Assembly (NCBI GenBank): GCA_029562645.1
Contig: JAKQUI010000005.1
Span: 7,961 to 71,960, forward strand
Direction: 5' to 3'
Length of the DNA stretch: 64,000 nt
From: Spirochaetota bacterium
GTDB lineage: Bacteria > Spirochaetota > UBA4802 > JAKQUI01
In this document: positions 3,570-49,458 of the stretch, in pieces
Position numbering within the stretch: position 1 is the first letter of the stretch
How the letters are laid out: every line of letters starts with the position of its first letter
Made by a program: the position numbers and the translations under genes
The notes under the pieces: model-generated
What the model was told of the DNA's origin: nothing
Database searches by the model: none
The model's input: the letters and a program-made list of their open reading frames with translations, nothing else

Positions 3570-3645
3570 ACGGCGTGCGGTCGCGACGGGCCGCCGCCGT
3601 CGATGGGGAGCGATGGAGCCGCGGATGTCCACGATATTTTTTCAG

Positions 3646-4940: not shown

Positions 4941-4996
4941 GTAAATTCCGCGGGGTATATGTAAAAAAAGTGTAAACGCCATCGGACTATTTTTAC
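4941..4996. promoter_or_regulatory. GTAAA pentamer repeats (CpxR-box-like) in the divergent intergenic region
   Basis: GTAAA at 4941, 4961 and 4972, and TTTAC at 4992. The 4961/4972 pair is GTAAA-N6-GTAAA, against the E. coli CpxR consensus GTAAA-N5-GTAAA. Confidence 0.35.
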
Positions 4997-5011
4997 AATC
5001 CGGAAAGGACC

Positions 5012-9828: not shown

Positions 9829-9870
9829 GCCATCACCCTCCCCGTGTTGATCGCCGCGGCGCCGATCCGC

Positions 9871-13231: not shown

Positions 13232-13383
13232 GGCGATTCACTCCGACAACGGCACTGAGGATCATACACGTCCAATCCGCTGTCACGCACTTTTTCACGG
13301 TATGATCCGGATCGCGACGCGATCCGCGCGACCGTCGGGCCGAAGACGCCTTACACGCACTGGATATGGGATGGTCTCCGCTG

Positions 13384-13417
13384 CCGGCGGCGGTCCCCTG
13401 CAATCGGCCGCCGCCGG
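13384..13417. terminator. GC hairpin 16 nt downstream of the vWA gene stop (no U-tract)
   Basis: CCGGCGGCGG-N14-CCGCCGCCGG perfect 10-bp stem. Confidence 0.25.
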
Positions 13418-13432
13418 TATCGTTGCATCACG

Positions 13433-15112: not shown

Positions 15113-15373
15113 ATCTCCCCCTCAGTTGCGTTGATTCCGGTCTGAACGACCGTTCTTATTGACGCCCGTCCCGCCGACGCCGGAAAAAAATTGTGCGGCG
15201 TGACGCTGCGTCTCGATCGAGTGACCGGCGGGGCCCCGGTTTCGTTCCCTGAATGTGACAATTTTTCCCCATTTACAGACCGTGATCGGGAAAAACCGGT
15301 ATTGCGGTATCGAACGCGCGCCGATACTAAGAACAGGCCGTACGCTTCGATTTTTTTCGGCAGGAGGACGCAC

Positions 15374-30314: not shown

Positions 30315-30575
30315 ATGAGCGTCATCATCAAGGACATACGCAGAAACGATCGCGAGATCATCCGCATCGAGGTCTCGGAATTCAAGGGACGCGACCTCAT
30401 CAACCTCCGCATCTGGTACCAGGCGGTCGACGAGCGCGGGAATGTCGTGTACAAGCCCACCCAGAAGGGCGTCGCCCTCGACGTATCGAACTACGCCGAA
30501 CTCCTCGACGGGGTCGAGCGCATCGGGAACTATCTCAAGGATCGCGAGGCCGGCGTCAATCCGCTGGGTGAATGA
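30315..30575 (+). CDS. PC4/Sub1-like ssDNA-binding small protein
   Basis: 86 aa. IRIEVSEFKGRDLINLRIWY...GNVVYKPTQKGVALDVSNYAELLDGVERI matches the bacterial PC4 (YdbC-like) beta-sheet/helix pattern. Confidence 0.5.
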   Translation: MSVIIKDIRRNDREIIRIEVSEFKGRDLINLRIWYQAVDERGNVVYKPTQKGVALDVSNYAELLDGVERIGNYLKDREAGVNPLGE

Positions 30576-32028
30576 TCCCCTCCTCGACGAGGCGGGCGAT
30601 GGACGCAACGCACAGCGCCCGCGCCGCGTCAATCTGAAGCTCATCGTGCAGGATGTCCGGGTTCGCCACGCCGCGAAGCACGTCCTCGATCAGGAAGCGC
30701 GGCCCGGAGGGGAGCCCTTCGACGAGGTCCGTCGCATAGCGGGCCCGAAGCCCTTTGAGCGCGGTTGACAGGACAAACCAGCCCGCCGACACGAGGACAT
30801 GCCGGAAGTCGCCCGGACCGATGCGCCGCAGGAGATACGGAAGGCTCTCCGCTCCCAGACCGCGGCGCCGAAGGCGCTGCCGGCGGTACTCGGTCACGAG
30901 TGACGCGTGCGCGGACAGCCGCTCGAGCGGCGACGGCGCGATCGAACCGGCGCGGGAGAGCAGCGACTCGGTGCTGCGTCGGGACACATGCTGGCCGATG
31001 AGGCCCCCGTACCAGGCGGGATCGTCGGCGATGCAGCGCGCGACCGTGTCCTCGTCGCAGGCGGACAGGACCGCGTACAGCAGGCCGTCCGCGGCGATCT
31101 CGAGGAACCAGTCGCGAACGTCCCTCGTCACCGCGATCCGCAGCGATGCGAGAAGCGCCCGTTCCGCCTGAACGGCGCGCAGAAACGGCGCGAAACCGAC
31201 ATCATCCCCCCCGCGCGAAAGGAACAGGACCGCTTCTTCGATGGAGTACGCACCGGCCATGAGATCGCGCCGCGTGAGCCGCTCGAGGCCGCGGTAGCGC
31301 CGCATCAGGGCGCGCACCTCGTCGACGAGGCGCGGCGAGAGGTTTCGCCGTATCCGTCCCGCCTCATCCGGAAGCGCCATCGTCATCACCATGAGTTGGT
31401 AGGGGCCGATGAGCCGTCGGTTCATGAGGCGGTAGAGGAGCGACTGCAGGGCGCTGTCGGAAAGCGAAGCGACGAGGCCGGGCAGATGGGGCAGCAGGCG
31501 CATGGGCTCGTCGAAAAAGGCGAGGACCGCATCATTGAGCGTGTCCGGATCGATCGCCCCGGGGCCGATGAAATGGCGCATGAACGGTGCCGGGAGCGTT
31601 ATTGAACACCCGGCGTCCCCGTCGGTAGAGACCACGGAGAGATCGATGCGGACAGACGGGTCCGTGTCCCCGGTGTGCGCGGTCGGTCCGCGTGGAGCGG
31701 GATCGGCCGCAACCGTCATGCGGCGCTTGAGCAGCATGCTCAGAAGCACGGACGAGAGGCCGCAGGCGTCGGCCGTGTGGCGGGAAAGGGATTCGAAAAG
31801 CTCGCCGGGCAGATCCAGATTGCGTATCTCGATGCGATGGACGGCCGGCGCATCCGTGACGGACAGATGCATGCTCGCCGCGGCGCCGGGCTCGGCGCGA
31901 TCGGACTGGAGGCGCAGGGGAGAGAGCGCCATGGTGCAGCCCGGACGCGCGCGGCGGAAAAAGTCGTCGGTGTCGGGCAGGAGCAGGGCGATGATGAGTC
32001 GGGAGGCGGCGGTTCCCGGCAGGGTCAA
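30556..32028 (-). CDS. hypothetical protein with a C-terminal FliG-C / MgtE-N-like helical domain (tentative); start uncertain
   Basis: The C-terminus ALKGLRARYATDLVEGLPSGPRFLIEDVLRGV...ARLVEEGII resembles the FliG C-terminal torque helix region (ALKG...GPVR...RLEEAGEI) but with shorter spacing. The listed start at 32028 is a TTG giving a TTGA overlap with the upstream RR-PP2C gene. ATG alternatives are at 31932 and 31872. Confidence 0.3.
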   Translation of the reverse strand: MTLPGTAASRLIIALLLPDTDDFFRRARPGCTMALSPLRLQSDRAEPGAAASMHLSVTDAPAVHRIEIRNLDLPGELFESLSRHTADACGLSSVLLSMLLKRRMTVAADPAPRGPTAHTGDTDPSVRIDLSVVSTDGDAGCSITLPAPFMRHFIGPGAIDPDTLNDAVLAFFDEPMRLLPHLPGLVASLSDSALQSLLYRLMNRRLIGPYQLMVMTMALPDEAGRIRRNLSPRLVDEVRALMRRYRGLERLTRRDLMAGAYSIEEAVLFLSRGGDDVGFAPFLRAVQAERALLASLRIAVTRDVRDWFLEIAADGLLYAVLSACDEDTVARCIADDPAWYGGLIGQHVSRRSTESLLSRAGSIAPSPLERLSAHASLVTEYRRQRLRRRGLGAESLPYLLRRIGPGDFRHVLVSAGWFVLSTALKGLRARYATDLVEGLPSGPRFLIEDVLRGVANPDILHDELQIDAARALCVASIARLVEEGIIHPAD

Positions 32029-33188
32029 AACTCGATGCTCAGAAAGGCGATGTCGTCCTTTCGGCGGTCCAGCGACGTGAACGATTGCAATTCTGCGAGC
32101 AGCCCCTCGCAGAAGTCGTCGCCGTGCAGGTCGCCGCGCGCCTTCATGAAGGCGCCGATGCGTCCCTCGCCGAACTCCTCGTTCTCGGCGTTTCGCACCT
32201 CGGAGATCCCGTCGGTGTATAGGAAGAGGCGGTCGCCCGGTTCCACGCGCAACGCCTTCTCGCCGTAGTTCGCGTCGTCGGCGATGCCCACGAAGAGGCC
32301 GTCGGTGTCCAACAGGAGCACGGCGTTCTTGCTCTTTCGGAAGTACAGCGCGCGGGTGTGGCCGGCATTGGTGAAGTGGATCGTGTTCTCGGCGGGATGA
32401 TAGATCACGTAAAACGCCGTGATGTACTGGTTGTCGAGCAGGAGGCCCTTCATCTCGCGGTTCACGGCGGCCAGAAGCTCGCTCGTTGAGCCGATGTTCG
32501 CGGCGTAGATGCTGAAGATCATCTTGGACATGGACATGACCAGGGCCGCCGGGATGCCGTGGCCGGTCACGTCGGCGATGAGCATGCCGACCGAGCCGTC
32601 GGGGAGCGTGTAGCAGTCGAAGTAGTCGCCGCCGATGTCCTCGATCGGGAGATACCGTCCGCTGATGGTCGGATAGGAGATCTGCGCAAAGCTTTTCGGG
32701 ATGATGAACTGCTGGACCTTCTTGGCGATCTCCAGCTCTTTTTTGATCTGCAGGTTTTTCGCGAAGAGCTCGTCGTGGGCGCGCTTGAGCTTGAGCAGCG
32801 AATTGACCCGGGCGACCAGCTCCTTCTCGTTGAGCGGCTTGAGCAGGAAGTCGTCGGCGCCGATGGACAGCCCCTTGATCTTCGAGTTGAGATCGTCCGA
32901 GCCGGTCATCAGGATCACCGGGATGAACTCATCGCGCACGTGGTCCTTGAAGCGCTCCAAGAACCCGAACCCGTCAAGGTTGGGCATGATGATGTCGACC
33001 AGGATGAGATCGAACCGCCGCCGCGCGAGGATGTCGAGCCCCTCCTGGCCGTCGGCCGCCTCGGTCACGGCGATGTTCATGCGGTCGAGCGTTTTGCGGA
33101 CGATGGCGCGGTTCAGACGGGTATCGTCGATAACGAGGATTTCCCAGGGGGTCTCTTTCTGGAGATAATCGTTGATGAGCATGGCCAT
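32025..33188 (-). CDS. response-regulator receiver fused to a PP2C/SpoIIE phosphatase (RsbU-like)
   Basis: Start at MAMLINDY. REC domain with ILVIDD...DLILVDIIMPNLDG. PPM domain with GGDYFD, DVTGHG, YTDGISE. Confidence 0.8.
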   Translation of the reverse strand: MAMLINDYLQKETPWEILVIDDTRLNRAIVRKTLDRMNIAVTEAADGQEGLDILARRRFDLILVDIIMPNLDGFGFLERFKDHVRDEFIPVILMTGSDDLNSKIKGLSIGADDFLLKPLNEKELVARVNSLLKLKRAHDELFAKNLQIKKELEIAKKVQQFIIPKSFAQISYPTISGRYLPIEDIGGDYFDCYTLPDGSVGMLIADVTGHGIPAALVMSMSKMIFSIYAANIGSTSELLAAVNREMKGLLLDNQYITAFYVIYHPAENTIHFTNAGHTRALYFRKSKNAVLLLDTDGLFVGIADDANYGEKALRVEPGDRLFLYTDGISEVRNAENEEFGEGRIGAFMKARGDLHGDDFCEGLLAELQSFTSLDRRKDDIAFLSIEF

Positions 33189-33485
33189 GCGTGGTACCGT
33201 TGTGCTCCCGCGTCGTGACGGTGCAACCGTAGTCGCGTAAAACGAAAGTTCAATTAAAATATTGCGCCGGGGGAAAAAAACGAACAGCCCCCTGGGGATT
33301 GTAATTGACAAAGACCGCCCCTGCCGAGGCATGCTGTCCCGTCGCACAAATGATTGAATCGAGGGGTGCACCGTGAGCAAACAGTACAACCCCGGCGAAA
33401 AGCGCAAGCGCGCGAAGCGCCGGCTCAAGCGGAAAAAGCAGAAACAACACGAGCAGCGCAAGCAGGGAAAATAGCGACCGCCGCA

Positions 33486-36400
33486 TCAGCGCCGGATAAT
33501 GATGCTGTGCCGCTCCGCCGTTTTCAACGCAACGCAGAATTTTACGAAATCTTGATACTCGCCCGGCTCGATACGGGCGCGCGAAAAGCGAACGGATTTC
33601 ACGACCCGCAGGGTGCGTGAACCCTTCGCTTTTTTTATGTCGATGCGGGCGTGCCCGTGGCGGGCCGTGAGCCGCACCTCGCGCTCGACGACGGCGTCGG
33701 CAAATCGATCGGGCAGGGTGAACTCGTAAGCGTCGTCCTCGCTGATGGCGTGCCGGATGACCAGGGGCGTCTCGCGCCGTTCGTAGTGGAGATAGTCGAG
33801 CACGCGGCTCGACTGCGACATCGGCTGCAGGATGATGCGGTCGTGGCCGACCGTCGCGAACGAGTCGCAGCGGCCGCGCGCCGCAATCACGAACGGACGT
33901 GAGTATTCGCGAAGGTTCGACAGGCGGAACTCGTCGATGCTCATCGAGGGGAACATCCCGCCCAGGACGGCGTTGACGCGATCCTCGCGGTAGGTCGCAT
34001 TCATGAAATCGCGCCGCATCGACCCGGTACGGCCCTCGTAGGCCACCTCGGCGTCGATGGCGGCGTCTCCCGCATCCGAGATCGTAATGCGATACCTGCC
34101 CGCAATCCCGCCGGGCGTCGTGTCGCGGACGGTCCGATGCTCGAACCCGTTTTTCAAAAGCACCAGGGCCTCGACGCCCGCCAGCTCCTCGGGGACCGCC
34201 CCGCAGGGGGCATGGCGGCCGGTGAAATCGAGCCACAACGACTCGCGCCCGTCCAGCGGGACGTAGAGGAGCGCGTGGGTGAACGCGTCCGGGGACATGA
34301 AGGCGCCCGTCGGCGGCAGGTGCGCATCGCGCGCGACGGCGATGAAGGACCGAATCCCCAGTCCCGCCAGGAGCGATTTCGCGAGTACCGCCTTGTCCTC
34401 CGGCGTGCCGCGCATCCGCATGAGGGTGTTTTCCGCCGGCTCCGGGTGGTACAGAACATTGCGCAGCGTGTCCATCTCTCGCGCCGTGAATTCGTACACG
34501 CGATCGACCGTTTCGCGCAGCGTGGGGGCCGCAAAACGACGCGCCGCCGCGGGGTCGATTCGCTCCGCGTTCGCTATGATGCCTCCGTACCAGGTGACGA
34601 AGTCGGAGGCGTCGCGCATGCTCGAAAAAGCGTAGTGCGGAAGTCGCCCGATGCCGGGGCCGCTGTCGTATTCGCGCCGGACCGCCGGGAGGTCGGTGAG
34701 CGTGATCGCGTGGCGGACGCCGCCGGCGACCGCGGTGCGCTCCCGCACGCCCTCGCGGTTGCATACGAGCGTGATCTCCTGTCCTGCGGGGGACGTGACG
34801 CTGATATCGCAGCGGTCCACCGGCTCATCGAACCCCGACAGCGCCGTCAGGGGGATGGAGAAGAAGCTCGAATTGCGCGGCTCGGTCACCGGAAAATCGA
34901 CCACATAGGCGATATGCACCACCGAGCCGATCGAGAGCGACGAAAGATTGAGATAATTGGTCCCGTTGATCTTCTCGATGCGATGGGAATCGCTGAAGCT
35001 CCCATCGGCGTGGTACACCCGCGCCCGCACCGGGTGGAGCGTTCCCGCGAAGGCGATCTCGTACTCGCCCCAGCGTTCGAGCTGCTTCCGGTCTTTCACC
35101 AGATACACGTCCTCGCACAAGACGCGGCTTCCCCCGTCGGCCATGAGGTGGAAAAACCGGCCGCGGTATAGGATGCGCGAGGGGCGCGATTCGGTGTCGG
35201 CGGATACGCCGCGCAGGATCGCGTCCTCGGCGCCGCCGATCCCGTTTCGAGCGAACGGGCTCTCGATCCGCTGGCGCGCCAGGTACGACATGAGCTCGGT
35301 CATGGTGAACAGGGACGGCTTGAGCGCGAGCATCTTGTCCCAGTGCGCCGACGGGTCGGCGCCGCGCCGGTAGTAGAGCTCGCCGAGCTTCAGGAGCAGA
35401 TACGGGTCCTCGCGGCGCGACAGGGCGTCGATGATGGCCGCGCGGGCGCCGGGCTCGTCGCCCTTCGCGATATACGCGTCGATGAGCTCGGCGATCAGCT
35501 CGCCCTCGGGATCGCGCGATCGAAGGAGGCTCACGATCTCCTGGTGCGCGCCGCGGTTTTTGTACAGGCGGACGAGCGCGGTGAGGTCGCTGCGGTCGTT
35601 CCGAGCCGCGAGCGCGACGCGCAGAGCGTCTTCGGCGGCGCGTGGATTTTTCGCGCGGACATGGGACGCGAACAGGCGGTGCGGCGCGGGCGACGACGGA
35701 AAGGCCAGGCGAAACGAGCGAAGCGCATCGTCGAATTCTGTATCATATCCGAGCTCGGAGAGGAAGCGCGCATGGGCGACCCGGGCCGGCAGATAGCGGG
35801 GCGCATCGGCGATGAGGTCGCGTCCCGTGCGGAACGCACCGCGATAATCGCGGCGCTCACGCTCCCGCTGGAAGCGCCTGAAGCGCGCCGGCGCGAAGTC
35901 GGGATGCTCGCGATTGAGCGATTCGTACAGGGTCCACCCCTCGCTGGCGAGGGCGCTCGCGGCGTTCTCCCCGTAGGCGATCAGCGCCGCGGCGAGGGTG
36001 AAGCGATATACGGGGTCGGGACGCCGGGCGATGGCGGCGCGATAGTGCGCGATCGATTCACGGCTGTTCAGCTCGTCATAGTAGGTGCCGAGCGCGAAGT
36101 GGGACTCGGCGGTGTCGGACCGGAGGCGCTCGACGAGTGCGGGAAACGGGACGTCGGGCTCCTCGATGCAGGCGGCCTCGTCAGTGCTCGTCTCGTCGGG
36201 ACGGGCCGTCGTCGGAACGATCGCGTCGTTCGCATCGGTCACCAGGACGCGAAAGCGCCAGTCGCCCTTTTTCATCACTTTGAGGAGCAGCGAGATGCGG
36301 CGCGGGCCCTCGACGCGGAGGACGCGCAGGTTTCGCGAGGTCCCGGACGGGTGATTGCGGACCGCCTCGCGGCCGTTCACGAAGAGCGTGTACGGGCCCT

Positions 36401-37082
36401 CGGCGTAGACGCGGACCTTCACCGGACCCGGCGCGACGATGGTGGTCGCCGCGTAGGCGACGCCGTCATCGGGATAGAGGTAGCGCGAGAGGTCCACCGC
36501 CCCCGAGGCGGCATCGACACGGACGATCTTTCGATGCACCGATGCGTCGCTGAGTTTGATGGAGAGCTCGGGCGGGAAGGGGTGGCGAAGGTCGGCGTCG
36601 CCAAACCGGTAGTAGGGGCCGATGAGCGTCCAGGTGCGCACGGGAGACAGGCGGGCCGACACCGCGGCGGCACGCGTGCGATCGAACTGATAGAGCGCCC
36701 GCTCCAGTTCAACCATGAGCGTGAGGCGCGCGATGTTCCGGTGCGGCCCCCCACCGCGCTCGACCGCCGCGATCAGTTTCTCCAGCGTCGCTGCGACGCG
36801 CGCGGGCCCGTGCACATCGGCAAGGCGCGCCAGATCATAATAATATAGGAACGATTCGAAACGGTCGGGAAACGCCGTGAGCAGGCGCTCGATCGCATCG
36901 TACAGCGCGACGTAATCGCCCGAGGAAAACGCCGCGTTAACGGCGCGCTCGAGCTCGGAAAAGGCGTGCGGCGCATCGGGAGCGGCCGTTGCGGCGCGGG
37001 CCGGCGATATCGTGACGAGCGCGATGAGGAAGAACGTAGCGAGCGCGAGAAGGAAGTGGCGCGCGCGACGATGTATGTTCAT
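33486..37082 (-). CDS. large secreted TPR / DUF3857 / transglutaminase-like protein, catalytic Cys replaced by Thr (probable pseudoenzyme)
   Basis: Signal peptide. The core reads RGTPEDKAVLAKSLLAGLGIRSFIA instead of GDC.D. His (FTHALLYV) and Asp (LWLDFTG) are still present. Same overall architecture as 38056..41736. Start at MNIHRR (ATG) 5 nt after the ADH stop. Confidence 0.55.
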   Translation of the reverse strand: MNIHRRARHFLLALATFFLIALVTISPARAATAAPDAPHAFSELERAVNAAFSSGDYVALYDAIERLLTAFPDRFESFLYYYDLARLADVHGPARVAATLEKLIAAVERGGGPHRNIARLTLMVELERALYQFDRTRAAAVSARLSPVRTWTLIGPYYRFGDADLRHPFPPELSIKLSDASVHRKIVRVDAASGAVDLSRYLYPDDGVAYAATTIVAPGPVKVRVYAEGPYTLFVNGREAVRNHPSGTSRNLRVLRVEGPRRISLLLKVMKKGDWRFRVLVTDANDAIVPTTARPDETSTDEAACIEEPDVPFPALVERLRSDTAESHFALGTYYDELNSRESIAHYRAAIARRPDPVYRFTLAAALIAYGENAASALASEGWTLYESLNREHPDFAPARFRRFQRERERRDYRGAFRTGRDLIADAPRYLPARVAHARFLSELGYDTEFDDALRSFRLAFPSSPAPHRLFASHVRAKNPRAAEDALRVALAARNDRSDLTALVRLYKNRGAHQEIVSLLRSRDPEGELIAELIDAYIAKGDEPGARAAIIDALSRREDPYLLLKLGELYYRRGADPSAHWDKMLALKPSLFTMTELMSYLARQRIESPFARNGIGGAEDAILRGVSADTESRPSRILYRGRFFHLMADGGSRVLCEDVYLVKDRKQLERWGEYEIAFAGTLHPVRARVYHADGSFSDSHRIEKINGTNYLNLSSLSIGSVVHIAYVVDFPVTEPRNSSFFSIPLTALSGFDEPVDRCDISVTSPAGQEITLVCNREGVRERTAVAGGVRHAITLTDLPAVRREYDSGPGIGRLPHYAFSSMRDASDFVTWYGGIIANAERIDPAAARRFAAPTLRETVDRVYEFTAREMDTLRNVLYHPEPAENTLMRMRGTPEDKAVLAKSLLAGLGIRSFIAVARDAHLPPTGAFMSPDAFTHALLYVPLDGRESLWLDFTGRHAPCGAVPEELAGVEALVLLKNGFEHRTVRDTTPGGIAGRYRITISDAGDAAIDAEVAYEGRTGSMRRDFMNATYREDRVNAVLGGMFPSMSIDEFRLSNLREYSRPFVIAARGRCDSFATVGHDRIILQPMSQSSRVLDYLHYERRETPLVIRHAISEDDAYEFTLPDRFADAVVEREVRLTARHGHARIDIKKAKGSRTLRVVKSVRFSRARIEPGEYQDFVKFCVALKTAERHSIIIRR

Positions 37083-37087
37083 GCGAT

Positions 37088-38059
37088 TCACCGGGTGCAC
37101 TCCACGACATATTTTTTATACGTACCGGACAGGTCCGACAGGACGCGCGCCGCCTCCTCGAGGGAGATCACGGCCTCGACGAAGGGGAGCGGATCGACGA
37201 GCCCCTGCGCGAGAAGCTCGATCGCCGGCGCGAACGGGCCGCAACGGGTGCCGATCACGGTGATCTCGTCCACCACGACGCGGTTGAAGTCGACCGTGAG
37301 CGCCCCGGCGAAGGTGCTCTTGGCGAACAGCGTCCCGAGCGGTTCGATATGGTCGAGCGCCAGCGAAAACCCGCCCGGCGTGCCCGATGCCTCCACGACC
37401 ACCGGAAAGCGCGACCGGTCATCGCCGACGCCGTCGCGATGCGAGCGCAGCGAGATCCTCGGATAGCGCTCGCCGAAGATGCGCATCTTGTCGTCGTGCT
37501 TTCCGATCAGCGTGACGGCGTTCCCGCGCAGCGAGAGAACCCCGACGATGAGGTACGAGAGGATGCCGTCGCCGATCACCAGGACCGAAAGCTCGGGGGC
37601 GAACGGGCGCACCGAGACGATCTCGAGCGCGGCGGCCAGCGGTTCGATAAAGGCGCCATGCACCGGGGAGAGCCCTTCGGGAAGGACGTATAGATTGCGC
37701 GCCGGGAGCGTGGCGTATTCGGCCATCACGCCGTCCTTGCGGAAGATGCCCAGCGTCGTTCGAGTGGGGCAGTGATGATACCGACCCTGCGCGCACGTCG
37801 GACAGTCGTGGCAGGCGAGGTTGATGTCGCCGGTGACGCTCGCGCCGACGAGCGACGGATCGTCGGTCTCGACGACCGTGCCGATGAACTCATGTCCCGG
37901 AATGCCGGTAAATCGCATGTAGCCGCGGGCGATCTCGCGATCGGTCCGGCACACCCCGGCGTAGCGGACCCGGATGAGGGCCTCCCCGGCGGTGCGGACG
38001 GGCTCCGGGAGATCGGTGCGGTATCGCATCGTCGTTCCATCGAAGTGGATCCCCTTCAT
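37088..38059 (-). CDS. zinc-dependent alcohol dehydrogenase (medium-chain dehydrogenase/reductase family)
   Basis: GVCRTD and GHEFIG catalytic-zinc motifs. Structural-zinc Cys cluster CHDCPTC. Rossmann VIGDGILS. ATGA overlap with the upstream gene. Confidence 0.8.
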   Translation of the reverse strand: MKGIHFDGTTMRYRTDLPEPVRTAGEALIRVRYAGVCRTDREIARGYMRFTGIPGHEFIGTVVETDDPSLVGASVTGDINLACHDCPTCAQGRYHHCPTRTTLGIFRKDGVMAEYATLPARNLYVLPEGLSPVHGAFIEPLAAALEIVSVRPFAPELSVLVIGDGILSYLIVGVLSLRGNAVTLIGKHDDKMRIFGERYPRISLRSHRDGVGDDRSRFPVVVEASGTPGGFSLALDHIEPLGTLFAKSTFAGALTVDFNRVVVDEITVIGTRCGPFAPAIELLAQGLVDPLPFVEAVISLEEAARVLSDLSGTYKKYVVECTR

Positions 38060-41000
38060 GGGCCGTTCCTCCGGATGATGATCTTTTCGTTCTCCTTCCG
38101 GTTCACGAAACGGGTGAAATCGCGAAACCGCGCATAGGACCCGATGGGAATCCGATGGGCCTTGAAGGCGATGTGCGATACAACCTCGATCACGCCCTCG
38201 CGCGCGACGAACCGGAATCGCGCCTCGCAGTCGTCGGTAACGAATTGCTCGCTTTTCGGGACCGAGACCGGGGAAAACCCCTGCGGCAGATGATACCGGA
38301 TGACGGTGTCGCTGGAGAAGGTCGTGGTGAACACGACGGGGTGCGTCCGCGAGCGAAGCATGGCGTACGTGCTGTAGTAGTTCGATGCGGAGAAAAACGG
38401 GCCAAAGACCATCTCGGCGCCGTCGGTCTCCAGGAAGGAGGGGACCGTAATGGTGTACCGGTACACCATCGGCTCATCGGGTTCGGCGGCGCCGTACTCC
38501 GGGGGCGAAATCGTCGCGCCCGGAAAGCGCTCGTTCCAGTAGGCCGAGATCGACGCGCGCTTCTTCTCGCGGTCCTGGAGCTCGGACCGGGACCCCACCG
38601 CGTATGATCCGCGCTTCGAGAGCGTGCGGACGATGCGCGCATCGCCGGCGGGCGTCAGGTACACGTCGTTTGTCACATCGTCGCGGTTCTCGGCGTAGCG
38701 GCGGTGCGCGGTGTCGATGAACCGGTATCGCCGATCGCCCACGACGAATGCGGTGATTGCGCGGTCGGTCGACGGCAGCTCGCTCATGCCGGCGAGCTTC
38801 GCGGTCCCGTCGAGGAACAGGGGGCCGTTCGCATCGACGTGGCATATCGCGTGGTTGAAATCGCCCAGGTAGGGGACCGCGAGGTTGGCCGGGCCGTTGT
38901 CCCGGGTGCGGACCAGCGCCAGGTTCGCGTCGATTCCAGCGGCGCGCAGGAAGGCCGCGAGCACCAGGGAGATGTCCTTACAGTCGCCCATGCGGGTGTG
39001 ATAGGTCTGGTCGGCATGGCGCGGTCGGATGCCACCGATGCCCAGCTCGAAGCCCACGTAGCGGATATGCGCGTTCACGTGGTTGTAGATGCGGCGGATC
39101 GTATCGTCGCGACCGGACGCGCCGGCCACCGCTGTTCGCAGCGCATCGCGCATCTCGGCGCTCATCGTCATGCGGTCCTTCACCAGCGAACGGTACCAGC
39201 CGTGCGCCTCCGTCCAGTTTCGGAAGGTCGTAAAATAGAGCATCGGGACCAGCTGGCTGCGGTGGGGCATCAGCGACTCCTTCTTGTACGGGGCGCGGTC
39301 GCGAAGATGGAGCCGATGGACGGTATCGGCGGGACCGACCGTTGTGGCAATCGGCGATCCGTCGATCCCGCGCAGGTGCGGATAGACCGATTTGTCGCGC
39401 GGATGCGCAAGGACGCAGTTGAACACCAGGGTCCGGTGCTCGCCGCCGACGGGAATGCGCTCGCCGAAATAGCCCTTGTATATCTCCCCCACGCGACTGA
39501 TGCGGGTATAGCGCAGATCGATGATGCTCCCCGGCCCCAGCGAGGGCAGGGGGATCACCTTCGCCTTCACGTCATAGAAGAGCCGGCTCTCGGGATCGGA
39601 AAGGGAGCGGTCGTAGAAGGCGGTCACGGCGGTGCGGGTCCCGTCGTTGATCACCCCACAGTCGATGTCCTCGATGGAATCCGTCTCCGGTGAATACACG
39701 ATGTACTGACGCGTAAACTCGTCGAGGGCGCTCCGGTCGTTGATGAGAACGGCCTTCCGGACCCGGTGCTCGTAGGACCCGTCGGGGAGGACCCGTATCA
39801 TCGTCTCGTCGATGAGGATTACGGCGGCCTCGTCTCGGTGCCGCGCGGCGGCGCGCGCAAGGTCGCGGATATCGTCGCGGACCGCATGGCCGTCAAGCGG
39901 ATCGGGCCGGTTTTCGATGATGGTCAGATAGCGCTTGAGCGCAACGTTTCCCTGGTCGTGACGAAGGGCGCGCGCAAGATAGTGACGCGCGAGGGCGTCG
40001 TTTCCCAGCCGGTGGTACACCAGCCCAAGGCGCATGAGGGCGCCTGCGTGCTGCGGCGCGCGCTGGAGGAGCGCGCCGAGATAGGGAACCGCCGCACCCG
40101 GACCCTGGGTCTGCTCGATGATGTCGATCAGGCGAATCAGCGTGTTCGGATCGTCAGGATACAGGACCAGCGAGTGGGTGAGGACCGACGTGGCGCGGTC
40201 CAGGTCGCCGGTCGCGGTGAGGCAGCGCACGAGCCGGTCGATCACGACGGGATTGCCCCGCTCCCGATTGTAGTGCCATTCGATGCTCGGCAGCGCCGCG
40301 GCGTTGTCGCCGCGCGAGAGGTGCATGATGCCCTCAATGGCGCGTCCCGTCGAGGGATACCGGGAGCGCTGCGCCTCGCGCGCCAGCCGCAGGCCCTCGG
40401 TGTGCCAGCCCAGCGCCTCGAAAAGCCGCGCCGAAACGATCGGGTATTTGAATGACGCCCGGTTCTCGCGACCGATCGCCTCAATCAGCGGCGCGGCTTC
40501 GTAGAGAAAGCCGGTGCGGATCTTGCCGTGCGCAAGCTCCGTGAGCGCCTCGATGTGGTCCTTGTGCGCGCGCAGGCATTCGTGAAGATGCGCCTCGCGT
40601 TGTTCCGCGGTCTTTTCGATCATCGCCAGATACCAGCGCGCGGGAACCGGCACTGCGAGCGAGCGCTGGAAGAGCGCGCGCACCTCCTCGATGGACTTCC
40701 CGGCAAGCCCGGTGGCCTGGAGCAGGTACCCGAGGCGAAAGGCGGCCATTGGATCTTGCGCCGCGAAATTGGAGAGCCCGGCGGCGGAGGGAAACAGCGA
40801 CGAGGATACCGCCGCAGGAGCGCTTCCGCGCTCGATCGCGGTGTGCGGCGATACGGGTGCGGGTACCGCTCGGCCGTCAGCGTCGGTCAGCCGAAGGGAA
40901 ACCCGGATGCCGTCTCCATCGGCGGCGCCGATCTTGACCAGAATCGCGTGCGCGCCTTTCGTGAGACGGGCAGAGATCCGGTACTGGTCGTGAAAGAAGG

Positions 41001-41736
41001 AATGCTCGCGCCGGTTCGAAAAGACCCGCGTCCCGTCGATCCAGATATCGCAATAGCCCGTCTTTCCCACGAAGAGCTGATAGGCGCCGTCGGCCGGGAC
41101 GGAGCGGACGGTCCGCAGCAGCACAAAGGTATTGTCGATGTCCTTGAAATAGTTGTTGATGGTGAACACGCCGGTGAGTCCCGTGCGGGCGGGAAACCAG
41201 CGCGCCTCCCCGGAGCGCCCCCGCGATGCTGGCGGATCGAACGGGCGCTGCGCGTTGACCGGCATGGCATTGAAGTCGGCGCCGCCCCGATTATGGAAGG
41301 GACCAATAACGTCGCACGAGGTCAGGAAGCCGAGGCCGTCGATCGCACTCGTCACGGCGGAGCCTGATCCGCGGCGAAGCTCGAGCTGCGCGCGGAGCGT
41401 GGCGGCGCGCGCCCGGAGAACGGCGCTGGCGAGGAGCGCGGGAGCGGCCGACTCGGCGCGCGCGAGGGCGGCGATGGCGGAATCGACGAGCTCGACGGTC
41501 TCGGCAAGCTCGAAGAGGCGCACAAGCTCGATTTCGGCCCGGATGGGATCGTCGTGCCGCATGATGCGATCGCTCGCGATCTCGAGCGCGCGATCGTAAT
41601 TCCCCAGGCGCTTCTGGCGGAAGTATTCGGACTCGTCGTCGGGTTGGGCGTGGGCCACAGCGCCGTGCGCGAGCGCGATCGCGCAGAGAAGGACGACGAT
41701 GCAGGCACGGGCGATGTGTCGTGGCGGTCGCGGCAT
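38056..41736 (-). CDS. large secreted TPR / DUF3857 / transglutaminase-like protein with an intact Cys-His-Asp triad
   Basis: Signal peptide MPRPPRHIARACIVVLLCAIALAHG. N-terminal TPR-like helical repeats. Core MGDCKDISLVLAAFLRAAGI with NHAICHV and LFLDGT. C-terminal beta-rich region. Confidence 0.6.
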   Translation of the reverse strand: MPRPPRHIARACIVVLLCAIALAHGAVAHAQPDDESEYFRQKRLGNYDRALEIASDRIMRHDDPIRAEIELVRLFELAETVELVDSAIAALARAESAAPALLASAVLRARAATLRAQLELRRGSGSAVTSAIDGLGFLTSCDVIGPFHNRGGADFNAMPVNAQRPFDPPASRGRSGEARWFPARTGLTGVFTINNYFKDIDNTFVLLRTVRSVPADGAYQLFVGKTGYCDIWIDGTRVFSNRREHSFFHDQYRISARLTKGAHAILVKIGAADGDGIRVSLRLTDADGRAVPAPVSPHTAIERGSAPAAVSSSLFPSAAGLSNFAAQDPMAAFRLGYLLQATGLAGKSIEEVRALFQRSLAVPVPARWYLAMIEKTAEQREAHLHECLRAHKDHIEALTELAHGKIRTGFLYEAAPLIEAIGRENRASFKYPIVSARLFEALGWHTEGLRLAREAQRSRYPSTGRAIEGIMHLSRGDNAAALPSIEWHYNRERGNPVVIDRLVRCLTATGDLDRATSVLTHSLVLYPDDPNTLIRLIDIIEQTQGPGAAVPYLGALLQRAPQHAGALMRLGLVYHRLGNDALARHYLARALRHDQGNVALKRYLTIIENRPDPLDGHAVRDDIRDLARAAARHRDEAAVILIDETMIRVLPDGSYEHRVRKAVLINDRSALDEFTRQYIVYSPETDSIEDIDCGVINDGTRTAVTAFYDRSLSDPESRLFYDVKAKVIPLPSLGPGSIIDLRYTRISRVGEIYKGYFGERIPVGGEHRTLVFNCVLAHPRDKSVYPHLRGIDGSPIATTVGPADTVHRLHLRDRAPYKKESLMPHRSQLVPMLYFTTFRNWTEAHGWYRSLVKDRMTMSAEMRDALRTAVAGASGRDDTIRRIYNHVNAHIRYVGFELGIGGIRPRHADQTYHTRMGDCKDISLVLAAFLRAAGIDANLALVRTRDNGPANLAVPYLGDFNHAICHVDANGPLFLDGTAKLAGMSELPSTDRAITAFVVGDRRYRFIDTAHRRYAENRDDVTNDVYLTPAGDARIVRTLSKRGSYAVGSRSELQDREKKRASISAYWNERFPGATISPPEYGAAEPDEPMVYRYTITVPSFLETDGAEMVFGPFFSASNYYSTYAMLRSRTHPVVFTTTFSSDTVIRYHLPQGFSPVSVPKSEQFVTDDCEARFRFVAREGVIEVVSHIAFKAHRIPIGSYARFRDFTRFVNRKENEKIIIRRNGP

Positions 41737-42899: not shown

Positions 42900-44378
42900 A
42901 TGAAGACCGCACAAACCGCATTCATGCTATTGATGATAACCGTTCTCGCCGGGGCCGTATCGTGCCGGCTCAAGGTGCCGCTCAAGGAGATGTCTCTAGC
43001 GAAGAGCGCCATCACCCGCGCGGGCGAGGTCAAGGCGGACAAGTACGCGCCGGACGACCTGAAGCGCGCCAAGGAGTTCCTCTCCCTCTCGCACGCCGAT
43101 ATCAAGAAAGAAGACACCTCGAAGGCGGAGGAGAACGCGAAGAAATCGCTCGCCTACGGCACCGACGCCATCAACAAATCGCTGCCGCTCCTTTCGAAGG
43201 ACACGCTCGACGAAGCGAAAAAGCTCATCGCCGACGCCGAGCGCATGAACGCCGAGCGCTATGCGTCCTCCGATTTTTCGGACGCCCGGAGCAAGGCGGG
43301 CGAGGCGGAAAAGCTTCATGGTGATAAATCGTTCTGGGAATCGTATCTCGTATCGAAGAAGGCGATCGCCGCCGCGACCGCAGCGCGCGACAAGGCCGAG
43401 GCGCGCATCCCCGAATTGCAAAACCGCATCGCGTCCATCCGCGGTGAAGCCGACAACCTGAAGTCGGCGCGCGGATCGGAGTTCGCATCATCCGAACTCG
43501 CGCAGGTGTCGTCGCGGCTCGATGCGGCCACCGCCGGCATCGGCCAGAAGAACCTGAAGGACGCCTCCCGCGCCATCGACGATGCCGAGAGCGCCCTTAA
43601 CCGCGCGAAGGGCAACACCAAGCGCGGCATCGCCGCCGAGAAGATCCGGAACGCCGAAAAGGAGCTCGATATCGCAAACTCCTCGAAGATGAAGGACCAG
43701 TTCGCGGCGGACATTCAGCGCGCCTCGACGCTGATCACGAATGCGAAGAGCGACCTGTCCAGCGGCTCGTTCGACGCCGCCGCGACCAAGGCCGATGAGG
43801 CGACCGCACTCCTGAAATCGGCGAATTCCAACATGACCGTAAAGGCGCAGGAGCTCAAGAAGACCGCCCAGGAGAAGCTCGAGGCGGCGGAAAACGCGCT
43901 CAAGAAGATCAAGGAATCGCCGCTGGCAAGCCACATGCAGGCCGATATCGACGCGGTGCAGCCGCTCATCGACCAGAGCCGCGGATTCCTGAACAACGAC
44001 GCCTATCAGGACTCCATCGCGAAATCCGACGAGGCGCTCGCGCGCATCAATCAAATCAACATCGCCATGGAAAAAAAGGCCGAGGAGCTGCGCCTCAAGG
44101 GCGATACGTCGAAAGAGGCGAAAGAGGAGCAGGTGTACGTGGTCAAGTACAACCCCAAAAAGCGAGACTGCCTCTGGCGCATCGCCTATTATGTATACAA
44201 GGACGCCAAGCTCTGGCCGGTGATCTATACGGCGAACAAGGACAAGATCAAGGACCCGGACCTCATCTTCCCCGGACAGAAGTTCAGCATCCCCTCCATG
44301 GACAAGAAGTCGGATGATGCAGGCAAAAAGGAGAAGGGAAAGCCGCCCGTCGAGGGTACGGTCGACAAGCGGGACTGA
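42900..44378 (+). CDS. lipoprotein with a long coiled-coil/helical region and C-terminal LysM domain
   Basis: Lipobox LAGAVSC. C-terminal YVVKYNPKKRDCLWRIAYYVYKDAKLWPVIYTANKDKI...PGQKFSIP is a LysM pattern. Confidence 0.6.
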   Translation: MKTAQTAFMLLMITVLAGAVSCRLKVPLKEMSLAKSAITRAGEVKADKYAPDDLKRAKEFLSLSHADIKKEDTSKAEENAKKSLAYGTDAINKSLPLLSKDTLDEAKKLIADAERMNAERYASSDFSDARSKAGEAEKLHGDKSFWESYLVSKKAIAAATAARDKAEARIPELQNRIASIRGEADNLKSARGSEFASSELAQVSSRLDAATAGIGQKNLKDASRAIDDAESALNRAKGNTKRGIAAEKIRNAEKELDIANSSKMKDQFAADIQRASTLITNAKSDLSSGSFDAAATKADEATALLKSANSNMTVKAQELKKTAQEKLEAAENALKKIKESPLASHMQADIDAVQPLIDQSRGFLNNDAYQDSIAKSDEALARINQINIAMEKKAEELRLKGDTSKEAKEEQVYVVKYNPKKRDCLWRIAYYVYKDAKLWPVIYTANKDKIKDPDLIFPGQKFSIPSMDKKSDDAGKKEKGKPPVEGTVDKRD

Positions 44379-46292: not shown

Positions 46293-46508
46293 TTTTAACA
46301 CACAGAACGCACTCCACGCATCATGTCGCGTCTTCGCTTGTCCACAGAGCGGAGTGGTTGTCGTGTTTTCGAATATTCGTCTCGGGTGGCCGTCGGTCAT
46401 CGTTCCCCGGATATTCGCGATCTCGCGACGATGCGTACGCTGCTCCGGCGGGTTTCTTTCGCCGCGTTTCGGTTCGGTCCAAGAGTTTATCGGTCGGGAG
46501 TATCCTTC

Positions 46509-48566
46509 ATGGGCGCACAGAAGAAAAAGGTACAATTCATCCGGAAGCGCGATGGGCGGATTGTTCCTTTCGACCTCGAGAAAATCGTCGATGCGATCTT
46601 CAATGCGGCGCGGGCCGTCGGCGGCGACAACCGCGACATCGCCCAGGGCGTGGCGCAGTCCGTGCGCGACATCGTCGAGATCGCTTATTGCAACGAGCGC
46701 ATTCCCACCGTCGAAAACATCCAGGACCTCGTCGAGAAGATGCTCATCGAGAAGGGCCACGCAAAGGTCGCGAAGGCCTACATTCTCTACCGCGAACAGC
46801 ACCGGAAGATCCGCGACGGCAAGGACCTCCTAAACGAGGGGATCGCACTCATAGAAAAGTATCTCGACCGATCCGACTGGCGCGTGAACGAAAACAGCAA
46901 CATGAGCTATTCGCTCCAGGGGCTCAATAATCATATCGCCTCGGCGGTCACCGCGAAGTACTGGCTCGAGCGCATCTACCCCCCGGAGATACGGGACGCG
47001 CACATCAACTGCGACGTGCATCTGCACGACCTGGGGCTCCTCTCGGCCTACTGCGTCGGGTGGGACCTCAAGGACCTTCTCCGGCGCGGATTTGGCGGCG
47101 TGCCCGGGAAGGTCGAGAGCCGCCCGGCGAAGCACTTCCGGAGCGCGCTGGGCCAGGTGGTCAATTTCTTCTACACCCTGCAAGGGGAATCGGCCGGCGC
47201 GCAGGCCTTCGCGAACTTCGATACCTATCTCGCGCCCTTCATCCGCTACGACGGGCTCACCTATGCCGAGGTGAAGCAATGCCTGCAGGAGTTCATCTTC
47301 AACATGAACATCCCCACGCGGGTGGGCTTCCAGACGCCGTTCACCAATGTTACGCTCGACCTCAAAGTGCCCAAGAACATCGGCGAGGAGTACGTCGTCA
47401 TCGGCGGCGAGGTGCGCGACCGGCAGTACAAGGAATTCCAGGAAGAGATGAACATCTTCAACCGCGCCTTCGCCGAGAGCCTGCTCGAGGGTGATGCGCG
47501 GCACCGCATCTTCACCTTTCCCATACCGACCTACAATATCGGCGCGGACTTCGACTGGAACAATCCGGCGCTCACGACCCTGTGGGAGATCACGGCGAAG
47601 TACGGCATACCCTATTTCGCGAATTTCGTAAACTCCGACATGGACCCGGAGGACGCGCGCTCGATGTGCTGCCGCCTGCGCCTGGATAATCGCGAGCTTC
47701 GAAGCCGCGGCGGCGGGCTCTTTGGCGCGAACCCGCTCACCGGCAGCATCGGCGTGGTCACGATCAACATGCCGCGCCTTGGATTCAAGGCGGCGAGCGA
47801 GGACGAGTTCCTCGAGTCGCTGGGGCGCCTCATGGACATGGCGAAGTCGTCCCTGGAGATAAAGCGCAAGGTGCTGGAAAACTTCACGCAGAGCAATCTC
47901 TACCCGTACACCCGGTATTATCTGGCCGATGTGTACAACCGCACCGGAAAGTTCTGGGTGAACCATTTCTCGACCATCGGCCTGGTGGGAATGAACGAGG
48001 CCTGCATCAACCTCATCGGGAAGGACATCTCGACGGAGGAGGGCAAGGCCTTCACGGTGCGCGTTCTCGATATGATGCGCGACCGCATCGCGTCCTATCA
48101 GGAGGAATCCGGGAACCTGTACAACCTCGAAGCGACACCGGCCGAGGGCGTGAGTTACCGGTTCGCGAAACACGACCGCGACACGTTCCCCGATATCGTC
48201 ACCGCGGGGGCCGGAGAGCCGTATTATACCAATTCGATCCATCTGCCGGTCGGGTATTCGGACGACGTCTTCGAGGTCCTGGACCACCAAAACGAGCTCC
48301 AGGCCAGGTTTACGGGCGGGACGGTGGTGCACTGCTTCATCGGCGAGAAAATCGACGATCCGAACATCGTAAAGCTGTTGATCCGCAAAATCACCGAAAA
48401 CTACTCGATACCGTATTTCACCATCACCCCGACCTTCAGCGTGTGCCCCGTGCACGGGTACATACCCGGATCGCACAAGTTTTGCCCCTACGATCACACG
48501 GACGAGGAGCTGGAGCGGTTCGGCATCGAGGCGCCCGCGGCGGGCGATAAAAAAGTGGCGATGTAG
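46509..48566 (+). CDS. nrdD: anaerobic (class III) ribonucleoside-triphosphate reductase, large body without the glycyl-radical segment
   Basis: N-terminal ATP-cone (KRDGRIVPFDLEKIVDAI). Class III core. C-terminal Cys/His pair CPVHGY...CPYDH, then an in-frame TAG. Start moved to Met63 of the track ORF, at the ATP-cone. Confidence 0.85.
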   Translation: MGAQKKKVQFIRKRDGRIVPFDLEKIVDAIFNAARAVGGDNRDIAQGVAQSVRDIVEIAYCNERIPTVENIQDLVEKMLIEKGHAKVAKAYILYREQHRKIRDGKDLLNEGIALIEKYLDRSDWRVNENSNMSYSLQGLNNHIASAVTAKYWLERIYPPEIRDAHINCDVHLHDLGLLSAYCVGWDLKDLLRRGFGGVPGKVESRPAKHFRSALGQVVNFFYTLQGESAGAQAFANFDTYLAPFIRYDGLTYAEVKQCLQEFIFNMNIPTRVGFQTPFTNVTLDLKVPKNIGEEYVVIGGEVRDRQYKEFQEEMNIFNRAFAESLLEGDARHRIFTFPIPTYNIGADFDWNNPALTTLWEITAKYGIPYFANFVNSDMDPEDARSMCCRLRLDNRELRSRGGGLFGANPLTGSIGVVTINMPRLGFKAASEDEFLESLGRLMDMAKSSLEIKRKVLENFTQSNLYPYTRYYLADVYNRTGKFWVNHFSTIGLVGMNEACINLIGKDISTEEGKAFTVRVLDMMRDRIASYQEESGNLYNLEATPAEGVSYRFAKHDRDTFPDIVTAGAGEPYYTNSIHLPVGYSDDVFEVLDHQNELQARFTGGTVVHCFIGEKIDDPNIVKLLIRKITENYSIPYFTITPTFSVCPVHGYIPGSHKFCPYDHTDEELERFGIEAPAAGDKKVAM

Positions 48567-48611: not shown

Positions 48612-48797
48612 ATGAAACAGAAAAAGCAGGTTCCCGTAGAGGTCTACTCCCGCGTGGTGGGATACTTTCGCCCGGTCAACCAGTGGAACAAGGGGAAACG
48701 GGAAGAGTTCAACGACAGGAAGGAATACGCATTACACAGCATCATGCGGGCGACGAGCAATGAATTTCAAGGGCATACACAAAACGTCGCTCATTGA
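48612..48797 (+). CDS. glycyl-radical segment of NrdD as a separate small ORF (or read-through extension)
   Basis: SRVVGYFRPVNQWNKGKREEFNDRKEY matches the NrdD radical-glycine motif (RVCGY...N.GKQ.E...R). AGGAGAGG lies 4 nt upstream of ATG 48612. It is in the same frame as nrdD, separated from it by one TAG. Confidence 0.5.
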   Translation: MKQKKQVPVEVYSRVVGYFRPVNQWNKGKREEFNDRKEYALHSIMRATSNEFQGHTQNVAH

Positions 48798-49458
48798 TTA
48801 TCCCGGCAAGATTTGCTCGATACTGTTCACCGGCGGCTGCAATCTGCGGTGCCGGTACTGTTACAATCCGGACCTGGCGTGCAATAACTGCGCGCTCGAG
48901 ACGCTGACGAACGAGGAGACCTTCTCGTTCGTCGAGCGCCGCAGGCATTTCATCGACGGGGTGTCAATCAGCGGCGGTGAGCCCACCCTGGCGAAAAACC
49001 TCGACAGCTTCATCAAGTCCGTGAAGGATATCTCGCTTTCCGTAAAGCTCGATACCAATGGATCGAACCCGGAGGTCATCAAGCGGCTCATTGAAAAAGG
49101 CCTGCTCGACTACGTCGCCATCGACGTGAAGACCTCTCCGTCGAAATATGATTTTCTCACCGGAACAACGTTTCGATTCGCAGACATCGTGAAAACCATC
49201 TCGATCGTGCGAGACGCCGGCATCGATTATGAGATCCGGACCACCTGCATCCCGTTTTTCGTCACGCTGGACGATTTCGTAGCGATCAAGCGCGAGATCG
49301 GGCGCGTGAAACAGTATTATTTACAGCAGTTCGTGAACAGCAAAACGCTCGATGACGATGTGGCGAATTATCAACCCTACCCCGCCGAGGAGCTCCATCG
49401 CTTCCGTGAGTTCGTATTGAGCTTTGCGGACCTGTGCGAGATTCGCGGACTGTCGTAA
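48760..49458 (+). CDS. nrdG: anaerobic ribonucleotide reductase activating protein (radical SAM)
   Basis: GCNLRCRYCYNP CxxxCxxC motif near the N-terminus. About 232 aa. Confidence 0.85.
   Translation: MNFKGIHKTSLIDYPGKICSILFTGGCNLRCRYCYNPDLACNNCALETLTNEETFSFVERRRHFIDGVSISGGEPTLAKNLDSFIKSVKDISLSVKLDTNGSNPEVIKRLIEKGLLDYVAIDVKTSPSKYDFLTGTTFRFADIVKTISIVRDAGIDYEIRTTCIPFFVTLDDFVAIKREIGRVKQYYLQQFVNSKTLDDDVANYQPYPAEELHRFREFVLSFADLCEIRGLS

Follow-up and report, generated by a model that had tools for sequence, protein, structure and literature searches.

The 64,000-nt stretch of DNA analysed here, referred to below as the window, comes from an uncultured Spirochaetota bacterium. Positions 33486-41736 of the window consist of three minus-strand open reading frames (ORFs), in the order up, ADH, dn. 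The two outer genes encode proteins of about 1200 residues that are paralogues of one another, one (Up) with an intact transglutaminase-like (TGc) active site and the other (Dn) lacking the nucleophile, while the gene between them encodes a dehydrogenase.

38056..41736, minus strand: up gene, 1226 aa from the ATG that precedes the signal-peptide-like N-terminus, MPRPPRHIARACIVVLLCAIALAHGAVAHA
37088..38059, minus strand: ADH gene, 323 aa, medium-chain Zn-dependent dehydrogenase (MDR), without a signal peptide
33486..37082, minus strand: dn gene, 1198 aa, N-terminus MNIHRRARHFLLALATFFLIALVTISPARA, full-length paralogue of up without the nucleophile

The three genes are closely packed. The junction between up and ADH reads GGC CCA TGA AGG, giving a 4-nt ATGA overlap, and ADH is separated from dn by 5 nt when dn is counted from the ATG at 37082. 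Two alternative GTG starts for dn, at 37091 (a 4-nt GTGA overlap with ADH) and at 37100, are both used by other annotators, and the coupling of ADH to dn is tight for any of these candidate starts. The packing that an earlier note on this locus had taken to suggest a single transcript is thus verified at both junctions. A promoter and terminator scan of the locus returned nothing beyond shuffled expectation and is uninformative either way on internal signals, while scanning the window for Rfam families, tRNAs and tandem repeats gave no relevant match. None of Up, ADH and Dn matched the PADLOC anti-phage defence models.

An assembly error could in principle produce a Dn protein without its cysteine, a possibility that the earlier note had itself raised. 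However, the exact Dn protein is encoded by 7 contigs of several origins; in addition, the genes of the triad carry consecutive accessions in at least four Spirochaetota metagenome-assembled genomes (MAGs). Given these independent assemblies, we conclude that the Cys-less variant is not an assembly artefact.

An intact and a degenerate active site

Up begins with a signal peptide, followed by N-terminal helices, a jelly-roll, a TPR solenoid, DUF3857, the TGc core and a C-terminal beta domain. The signal peptides of both Up and Dn were assigned by eye, as a basic-hydrophobic-AxA segment. The features within the two proteins are as follows.

41647..41736, minus strand: predicted Sec signal peptide of Up, MPRPPRHIARACIVVLLCAIALAHGAVAHA then QPDD, read by eye
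40837..41334, minus strand: jelly-roll of Up, aa ~135-300, resembling the GH2 N-terminal sugar-binding domain and PA14
38809..38982, minus strand: catalytic triad region of Up, with Cys919 at 38980-38982, His962 at 38851-38853 and Asp976 at 38809-38811
33489..35285, minus strand: C-terminal DUF3857-TGc-DUF3858 module of Dn, aa 600-1198, as modelled
34227..34409, minus strand: degenerate active-site region of Dn, with GTPED at 34395-34409, Pro894 at the Cys position, His936 at 34275-34277 and Asp952 at 34227-34229

Pfam recognises TPR_19/TPR_14 repeats in Up, together with DUF3857 (PF12969, 52.5 bits) and Transglut_core (PF01841, aa 870-949, 33.9 bits against a cutoff of 23). The C-terminal beta domain of Up has no Pfam match, yet still aligns with Dn to the C-terminus by BLASTP. 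Against a hidden Markov model (HMM) of the up family, built without the window's own Up, the protein scores 742 bits. The triad residues lie in the motifs GDCKD (C919), NHAICHV (H962) and LFLDGT (D976), and Cys-His-Asp is invariant in 76 of 76 up-type proteins, although this set was partly chosen on GDCKD and is biased to that extent. Among Cys-bearing relatives picked without the GDCKD bias, the remoter matches of a search with the window Dn described below, 31 of 31 also keep the His and the Asp, providing an unbiased confirmation of the sharp split between active and dead copies. With a Pfam score above the cutoff and a complete triad, Up is by its sequence a member of the TGc (PF01841) superfamily, and we regard it as the catalytic copy, a putative TGc-type cysteine hydrolase or transamidase.

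Dn is a more distant case. Its sole Pfam match is to DUF3858 (PF12970, 27.6 bits against a cutoff of 27), with no direct match to TGc, and a BLASTP comparison with Up aligns the C-terminal 400 aa at 22% identity (E 8e-11). Nonetheless, Dn is collinear with the up-family HMM (in a version built without window sequences) over positions 13-1218, with an E-value of 1.5e-91. We modelled residues 600-1198 of Dn with AlphaFold2 (AF2), on the basis of 32 aligned homologues. The result has a mean predicted local distance difference test score (pLDDT) of 88.3 and a predicted template modelling score (pTM) of 0.85, and its best Foldseek match in the PDB is 3KD4_A (E 1.5e-27, target-normalised TM-score 0.77 over ~500 residues). 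In the model, the Pro of GTPED is the first residue of helix 295-308, the position occupied by the nucleophile in the TGc fold, and the His and Asp are on the strands that follow. Sequence and model together predict a papain-like TGc fold for Dn. Both paralogues hold the DUF3857-TGc-DUF3858 architecture: DUF3857 is recognised in Up by Pfam and in Dn by the match to 3KD4, and DUF3858 is recognised in Dn by both. The N-terminal domain of each paralogue resembles jelly-rolls of the galactose-binding-like, GH2 N-terminal and PA14 types, and by this similarity of fold these domains are carbohydrate-binding-like.

The motifs of Dn that correspond to the triad are GTPED (aa 892-896), FTHAL (H936) and LWLDF (D952). 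The earlier note had correctly described two giant proteins of shared architecture around a TGc-like core, Up keeping Cys-His-Asp and Dn keeping the His and Asp without the nucleophile. Its account of the loss itself, as a Cys to Thr change with an inserted Pro, has to be amended. In both BLASTP and HMM alignments the dead and active loops are of the same length, so that GDCKD and GTPED align the Cys with the Pro and the preceding Asp with the Thr. Our conclusion from the HMM collinearity and the 3KD4 match, taken with a Pro at the Cys column, is that Dn is a member of the family by descent and by fold, but not an active enzyme of the TGc type.

Conservation of the pair and loss of the nucleophile

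Scanning one genome per species with an alignment of the up family gave at least 587 relatives, of which we examined the best 80 loci. These are mostly from Myxococcota, with some from Acidobacteriota, Planctomycetota and Coatesbacteria, and also from unclassified MAGs. Other searches were less productive. A single-sequence word-index search with Up gave 12 matches. When up and dn sequences were combined in one alignment, generic TPR proteins dominated the matches, but two key relatives, P0171 and P0175, came to light in this way. Since phmmer with the window Dn alone missed most downstream paralogues, family HMMs were used instead.

A paralogue of ~1200 aa lies downstream of up, nearly always directly adjacent to it, in 42 of the 63 loci that have at least 4 kb of downstream sequence, and the start of one is seen in 11 further, truncated loci. 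The gene order is fixed, with up preceding dn in every paired locus, and in 39 of 48 junctions there is a 4- or 1-nt overlap between the stop codon of up and a start codon of dn. In every locus the dn ORF is intact at ~1200 aa; this holds across more than 50 loci and at least four phyla.

The closest relatives of the window Dn are P0171 and P0175 (both 38% identical), from loci L089 and L090. In both loci up and dn are directly adjacent, with a small TPR lipoprotein gene ahead of them, and a divergent flanking gene is homologous to that of the window (32% identity), which makes L089 and L090 orthologous to the window locus. A metagenome scan with the up sequences of the window's clade gave 18 loci. 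Within this clade up and dn are immediate neighbours in L089, L090, L095, L097 and L098, and 400 nt separate them in L104.

Loss of the nucleophile is general among the downstream copies. In a set of 40 that was not selected on Cys, none has the residue, and most carry a 3-residue loop deletion, the Myxococcota type. An exhaustive phmmer search with the window Dn against 1.84 billion cluster representatives gave 1250 matches, 92 of them at E<=1e-30. Among 60 representatives of the window-dn-type clade, the nucleophile column is again without a single Cys (V in 19, A in 17, P in 13, others in the remainder). The Asp is kept in all 56 that align there and the His in only 14, while the loop G[TS]xED is conserved.

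This pattern allows the suggestion that Dn is still catalytic through a shifted nucleophile, namely the Thr or Ser of G[TS]xED working with the retained Asp, with or without the His. A Thr or Ser indeed stands one residue before the former Cys position in 57 of the 60 representatives, the Asp is invariant, and the window Dn keeps its His. However, only 14 of ~57 clade members retain the His, the Thr or Ser precedes the N-terminus of the helix that positions the nucleophile, and copies of the Myxococcota type delete the loop. We therefore consider a shifted nucleophile extremely improbable.

Two histories could account for the pairs, the first being a single ancient duplication and the second a series of local ones. 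In a neighbour-joining tree of 1146 aligned columns, all dead copies, including those of the window clade, form one clade in 68 of 100 bootstraps, while the up and dn of the window clade group together in 0 of 100. This last figure disfavours an independent local duplication in the window lineage, and on the sequence evidence we favour one ancient duplication. The dead copies have since diverged further than the active ones, with a mean pairwise identity of 24% as against 32%, and dn falls below up in 99.5% of locus pairs. Within the window clade the divergence is equal, the window Up and the window Dn each being 38% identical to their L089 counterparts, which argues for purifying selection on dn. 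A lipobox-like motif, as judged by a crude regular expression, is found in 21 of 41 Dn proteins and in 2 of 76 Up proteins.

The faster evolution of dn is what would be expected if it were a decaying duplicate without a function of its own, the pairing being a relic of tandem duplication. The loss of the His in most lineages, the loop deletion in most Myxococcota copies and the lack of a dn near up in many genomes could be read in the same way. Decay is difficult to reconcile, however, with ORFs that remain intact at ~1200 aa in more than 50 loci of at least four phyla, with the 92 cluster representatives found at E<=1e-30, or with a conserved G[TS]xED and Asp in a fold predicted with high confidence. 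In addition, the window-clade dn has diverged no more than its up, and translational coupling has been retained. We judge decay to be very improbable. Taking sequence and model together, Dn is a predicted pseudoenzyme, one in which the catalytic residue is lost, the fold is kept and the protein is conserved across lineages.

Several genes were seen beside the pair in its relatives. About 11 Myxococcota loci have a gene for an extracytoplasmic function (ECF)-type sigma-70 factor directly ahead of the pair (L023, L030, L040, L041, L052, L069, L077, L078 and L085 among them, at ~9000-9900), a neighbourhood that hints at envelope-stress regulation in Myxococcota. In the window clade a TPR gene of ~270-300 aa lies immediately upstream of up, overlapping or abutting it (L089:5401-6219, L090:4870-5739, L095:7021-7887, L097:9-959, L098:7074-7943, L100:601-1494), and the small TPR protein of L090 has a lipobox (LSALAIVAGC). 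The window locus is without this gene, and there a divergent 319-aa gene directly precedes up. Downstream of the pair, at a distance of ~1.3-1.6 kb, L089 (15124-16110) and L090 (14340-15206) have a peptidoglycan-related gene with LysM and Peptidase_M23 domains. On L093, considered below, the gene for a distant dead-type protein directly follows a gene for an HtrA-like Trypsin-PDZ protease (313-1629).

The intervening dehydrogenase

By its sequence, ADH is an MDR protein with a GroES-like domain, the catalytic Zn ligands and the structural Zn Cys cluster of the catalytic domain. Pfam gives 77.5 bits for ADH_N and 20.6 bits for ADH_zinc_N, the latter under its cutoff of 31.8, and C37, H56 and E57, together with the structural-Zn residues C83/C86/C89/C97, are invariant in an alignment with homologues. 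The protein is 45-51% identical to hundreds of MDR proteins of ~317 aa annotated as 'alcohol dehydrogenase catalytic domain-containing', with which it shares the Zn ligands. It differs from them in its sub-threshold cofactor domain and in its nucleotide-binding motif, which is GDGILS where the family has GDGKLG, and no other member was seen with TGc-like genes on both sides. The same motif change is present in P0042, a relative at 70% identity, and the cofactor use of ADH may be altered.

The earlier note had treated the oxidoreductase as an embedded part of a three-gene module, and it is here that our results depart from it most. No ADH homologue was found in any of the 80 genome loci, nor in the orthologous L089 and L090 or the rest of the window-clade loci, the sole exception in the clade scan being L094, which is the window's own species. 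Among 5.8 billion proteins, ADH falls into two species-level clusters, its own (98-100% identity) and that of P0042, and the next homologues are at most 51% identical. The contig that carries P0042, L086, repeats the layout of the window, with the C-terminus of an up protein (67.5% identical), an ATGA overlap and, 5 nt further downstream, a gene whose product bears a signal peptide. The dehydrogenase is thus missing from about 100 related loci and present only in the window species and L086. When the arrangement is followed into relatives, the pairing of up and dn is conserved, whereas the triad is confined to two close lineages.

Our conclusion from the restriction of ADH to two species, and from the orthologous loci that are without it, is that the gene was recently inserted between two genes that had long formed a unit. 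Other genes have been found between the pair elsewhere, namely those for a major facilitator superfamily (MFS) transporter and a Ser/Thr kinase in L046 and for a uracil-DNA glycosylase in L059. In L080, from the Planctomycetia, a third TGc protein of 639 aa (13374-15293; DUF3108 and Transglut_core, 69.7 bits) lies between the active and dead giants. We also considered recent horizontal transfer as a source of ADH and set the idea aside, as its GC content of 66.6% and its GC content at third codon positions (GC3) of 86% equal those of its neighbours.

It is still conceivable that the three genes form a functional module, with ADH for example introducing or eliminating an alcohol or carbonyl group on a substrate that it shares with both TGc-like proteins. 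The packing, with a 4-nt overlap followed by a gap of at most 5 nt, is tight enough for such a module, the same triad with its overlap recurs in a second species (L086), and the gene has the base composition of its neighbours and has kept its Zn ligands. Against this, ADH is without a signal peptide while both giants are predicted to be exported, and it is missing from all 80 genome loci, from L089/L090 and from all other clade loci. Furthermore, three homologues at ~50% identity lie in unrelated contexts, none adjoining TGc genes, and in other lineages unrelated genes occupy the same junction. We regard a three-gene module as very unlikely. To judge from its sequence, ADH is probably a passenger, a working cytoplasmic enzyme expressed along with the pair.

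The genes around the triad in the window are given here for completeness. On the same strand, ~300 nt downstream of dn, is a response-regulator/PP2C (SpoIIE) phosphatase gene, overlapped by a 490-aa gene without a Pfam match. On the divergent side there is a peptidoglycan-related neighbour, and further along an apparently split class III (anaerobic) ribonucleotide reductase.

32025..33461, minus strand: response-regulator/PP2C (SpoIIE) phosphatase gene
30556..32028, minus strand: 490-aa gene without a Pfam match
42900..44378, plus strand: DUF4398 protein with a weak LysM match
46323..48566, plus strand: large ATP-cone/NRDD ORF of the ribonucleotide reductase, stopping at TAG
48612..48797, plus strand: separate 61-aa ORF with its own Shine-Dalgarno-like aaaggagagg, carrying the glycyl-radical motif YSRVVGYFRP
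48760..49458, plus strand: radical-SAM activase gene, after the glycyl-radical ORF

A predicted enzyme and pseudoenzyme pair among known systems

The architecture and paralogy of the giants, the loss of the nucleophile from one of them, the conservation of the pair and the restriction of ADH to two close lineages lead us to the following reading, to which we assign a probability of roughly 0.6: the locus is a conserved two-gene unit in which an active Up and a pseudoenzyme Dn act together, and ADH is a lineage-specific insertion. An ancient duplication would have given rise to two exported paralogues of ~1200 aa with the same domain order. Up, as the catalytic subunit, would be exported and would act in the periplasm or at the cell surface. 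Dn, having lost its nucleophile in every lineage examined and yet kept its length, its fold and its G[TS]xED loop, would be a pseudoenzyme under selection. From the usual translational coupling we infer that the two proteins are produced at a constant ratio and cooperate, presumably as a complex, in the periplasm or cell envelope. Dn may serve there as a non-catalytic partner that binds substrate, scaffolds the enzyme or, with the lipoprotein-like lipobox of about half of the lineages, anchors it. For substrate binding, Dn could use its jelly-roll, its TPRs and the conserved pocket of G[TS]xED and Asp. The target recognised by the jelly-rolls and TPRs would be a protein or peptide associated with glycan, whether in the cell wall, at the surface or in the matrix. 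In the Spirochaetota lineage of the window, the gene for a cytoplasmic Zn-dependent MDR would then have inserted between the paralogues, with tight coupling kept.

Several observations weigh against this reading. Support for the single duplication is modest, with a bootstrap of 68% and saturated distances, and the window Dn scores alike against the up and dn HMMs (295 and 290 bits). No dead copy lies within 10 kb of up in 21 of the 63 loci, mainly those of Myxococcaceae but also Coatesbacteria L007, from which it follows that the catalytic copy can exist alone, or that its partner is encoded elsewhere in the genome. Within the window clade, about half of the loci (L096/L105/L106, L099, L101, L102 and L103) have no dn in the available flank. 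Conversely, L093 encodes a distant dead-type protein (1694-5245), 25% identical to the window Dn, with no up gene in the 1.7 kb of upstream sequence that is available. Clustering of neighbouring genes revealed no partner conserved across phyla, only Myxococcota synteny, abundant sigma-54 activators and the ECF-type sigma gene noted above. The window Dn has no lipobox, so that an anchoring role does not apply in the window; among its clade relatives the lipoprotein is the small TPR protein encoded ahead of up. Finally, ADH is coupled to the pair and kept in two species, where it has diverged about as much as up has (70% and 67.5% identity), and a lineage-specific functional link between ADH and the pair is possible.

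The solitary genes bear in particular on a further explanation, in which Up and Dn are both functional but independent, Dn being for example a receptor, or a binding protein for glycans or peptides, in its own right, and their adjacency reflects co-regulation. Each copy is found alone in some genomes (dn in L093, up in Myxococcaceae and others). On the other hand, the stop/start overlaps at 39 of 48 junctions and the constant order of the genes are what one typically sees for subunits produced at a set ratio, which is suggestive but not proof. We think independence unlikely. For the two-gene unit that we prefer, the existence of solitary up and dn genes means that the partnership may be facultative. 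A stronger form of the same proposal would have a two-subunit envelope machine spanning phyla, in which Up is obligatorily partnered by Dn for substrate recognition or membrane anchoring, glycan-binding-like jelly-rolls and TPR arms direct it to a glycan-linked protein or peptide of the cell wall, outer-membrane surface or matrix, and the Spirochaetota operon has captured a dehydrogenase. This stronger form we hold only tentatively, at somewhat less than even odds.

The C-terminal module of both proteins is that of the DUF3857/TGc/DUF3858 'putative protease' family (PF12969, PF01841 and PF12970), represented by PDB 3KD4 (BDI_1141 of Parabacteroides distasonis). Proteins of the 3KD4 type have ~500-650 aa, occur singly and have no assigned function. 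In contrast, the proteins described here have ~620 extra N-terminal residues, made up of helices, a jelly-roll of the GH2/PA14 kind and a TPR solenoid, and the module occurs in a conserved tandem, with one copy active and the other lacking its nucleophile. Literature and full-text searches on DUF3857, DUF3858 and transglutaminase-like proteins, combined with Myxococcus or pseudoenzyme, found no functional study.

Inactive proteins of the transglutaminase fold are known, among them erythrocyte band 4.2, and Rad4/XPC as compared with PNGase. Like Dn, these have kept the fold and lost the catalytic Cys, and are retained presumably for binding or scaffolding. However, they are eukaryotic and are not known to stand in tandem with an active paralogue, whereas the pair described here is bacterial, predicted to be exported, operon-coupled and present in several phyla; any relationship in sequence is limited to the shared TGc fold. 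Among bacterial proteins, LapG (of the bacterial transglutaminase-like cysteine proteinase family BTLCP, DUF920) is a periplasmic enzyme of ~25 kDa partnered by LapD. LapG is exported, has the TGc fold with Cys-His-Asp and acts in the cell envelope, so that a proteolytic role of Up is plausible by analogy. It is, however, not known to carry DUF3857/DUF3858, TPRs or a jelly-roll, its partner is LapD rather than a dead paralogue, and no protein of the locus matched the LapG family in Pfam or NCBIfam. The C-terminal module family, dead proteins of the transglutaminase fold and the concept of an enzyme/pseudoenzyme pair are therefore already known. A form of ~1200 aa that includes a jelly-roll and TPRs, and the conserved occurrence of this form in several phyla as a coupled active/dead tandem, appear to be undescribed. 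The earlier note had claimed novelty for an enzyme/pseudoenzyme pair with an oxidoreductase embedded between the two; for the pair itself we found no description, and the pairing is conserved well beyond the window genome.

One misleading lead is removed by these results, in that the dehydrogenase is a recent insertion and profiling of the three-gene triad would find almost nothing. The DUF3857/TGc/DUF3858 family is large and has had a crystal structure since 2009 while its function is still unassigned, and one branch of it can now be seen as a coupled active/dead pair. That pair is known from Myxococcota, Acidobacteriota, Planctomycetota and Spirochaetota, in each case with a carbohydrate-binding-like domain. 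A concrete model follows that can be tested, of a heteromer with the pseudoenzyme as its binding or anchoring subunit, and there are genetically tractable hosts for it among the cultured Myxococcota. If true, it would provide a bacterial, operon-encoded example of the enzyme/pseudoenzyme theme, which has so far been mostly eukaryotic.

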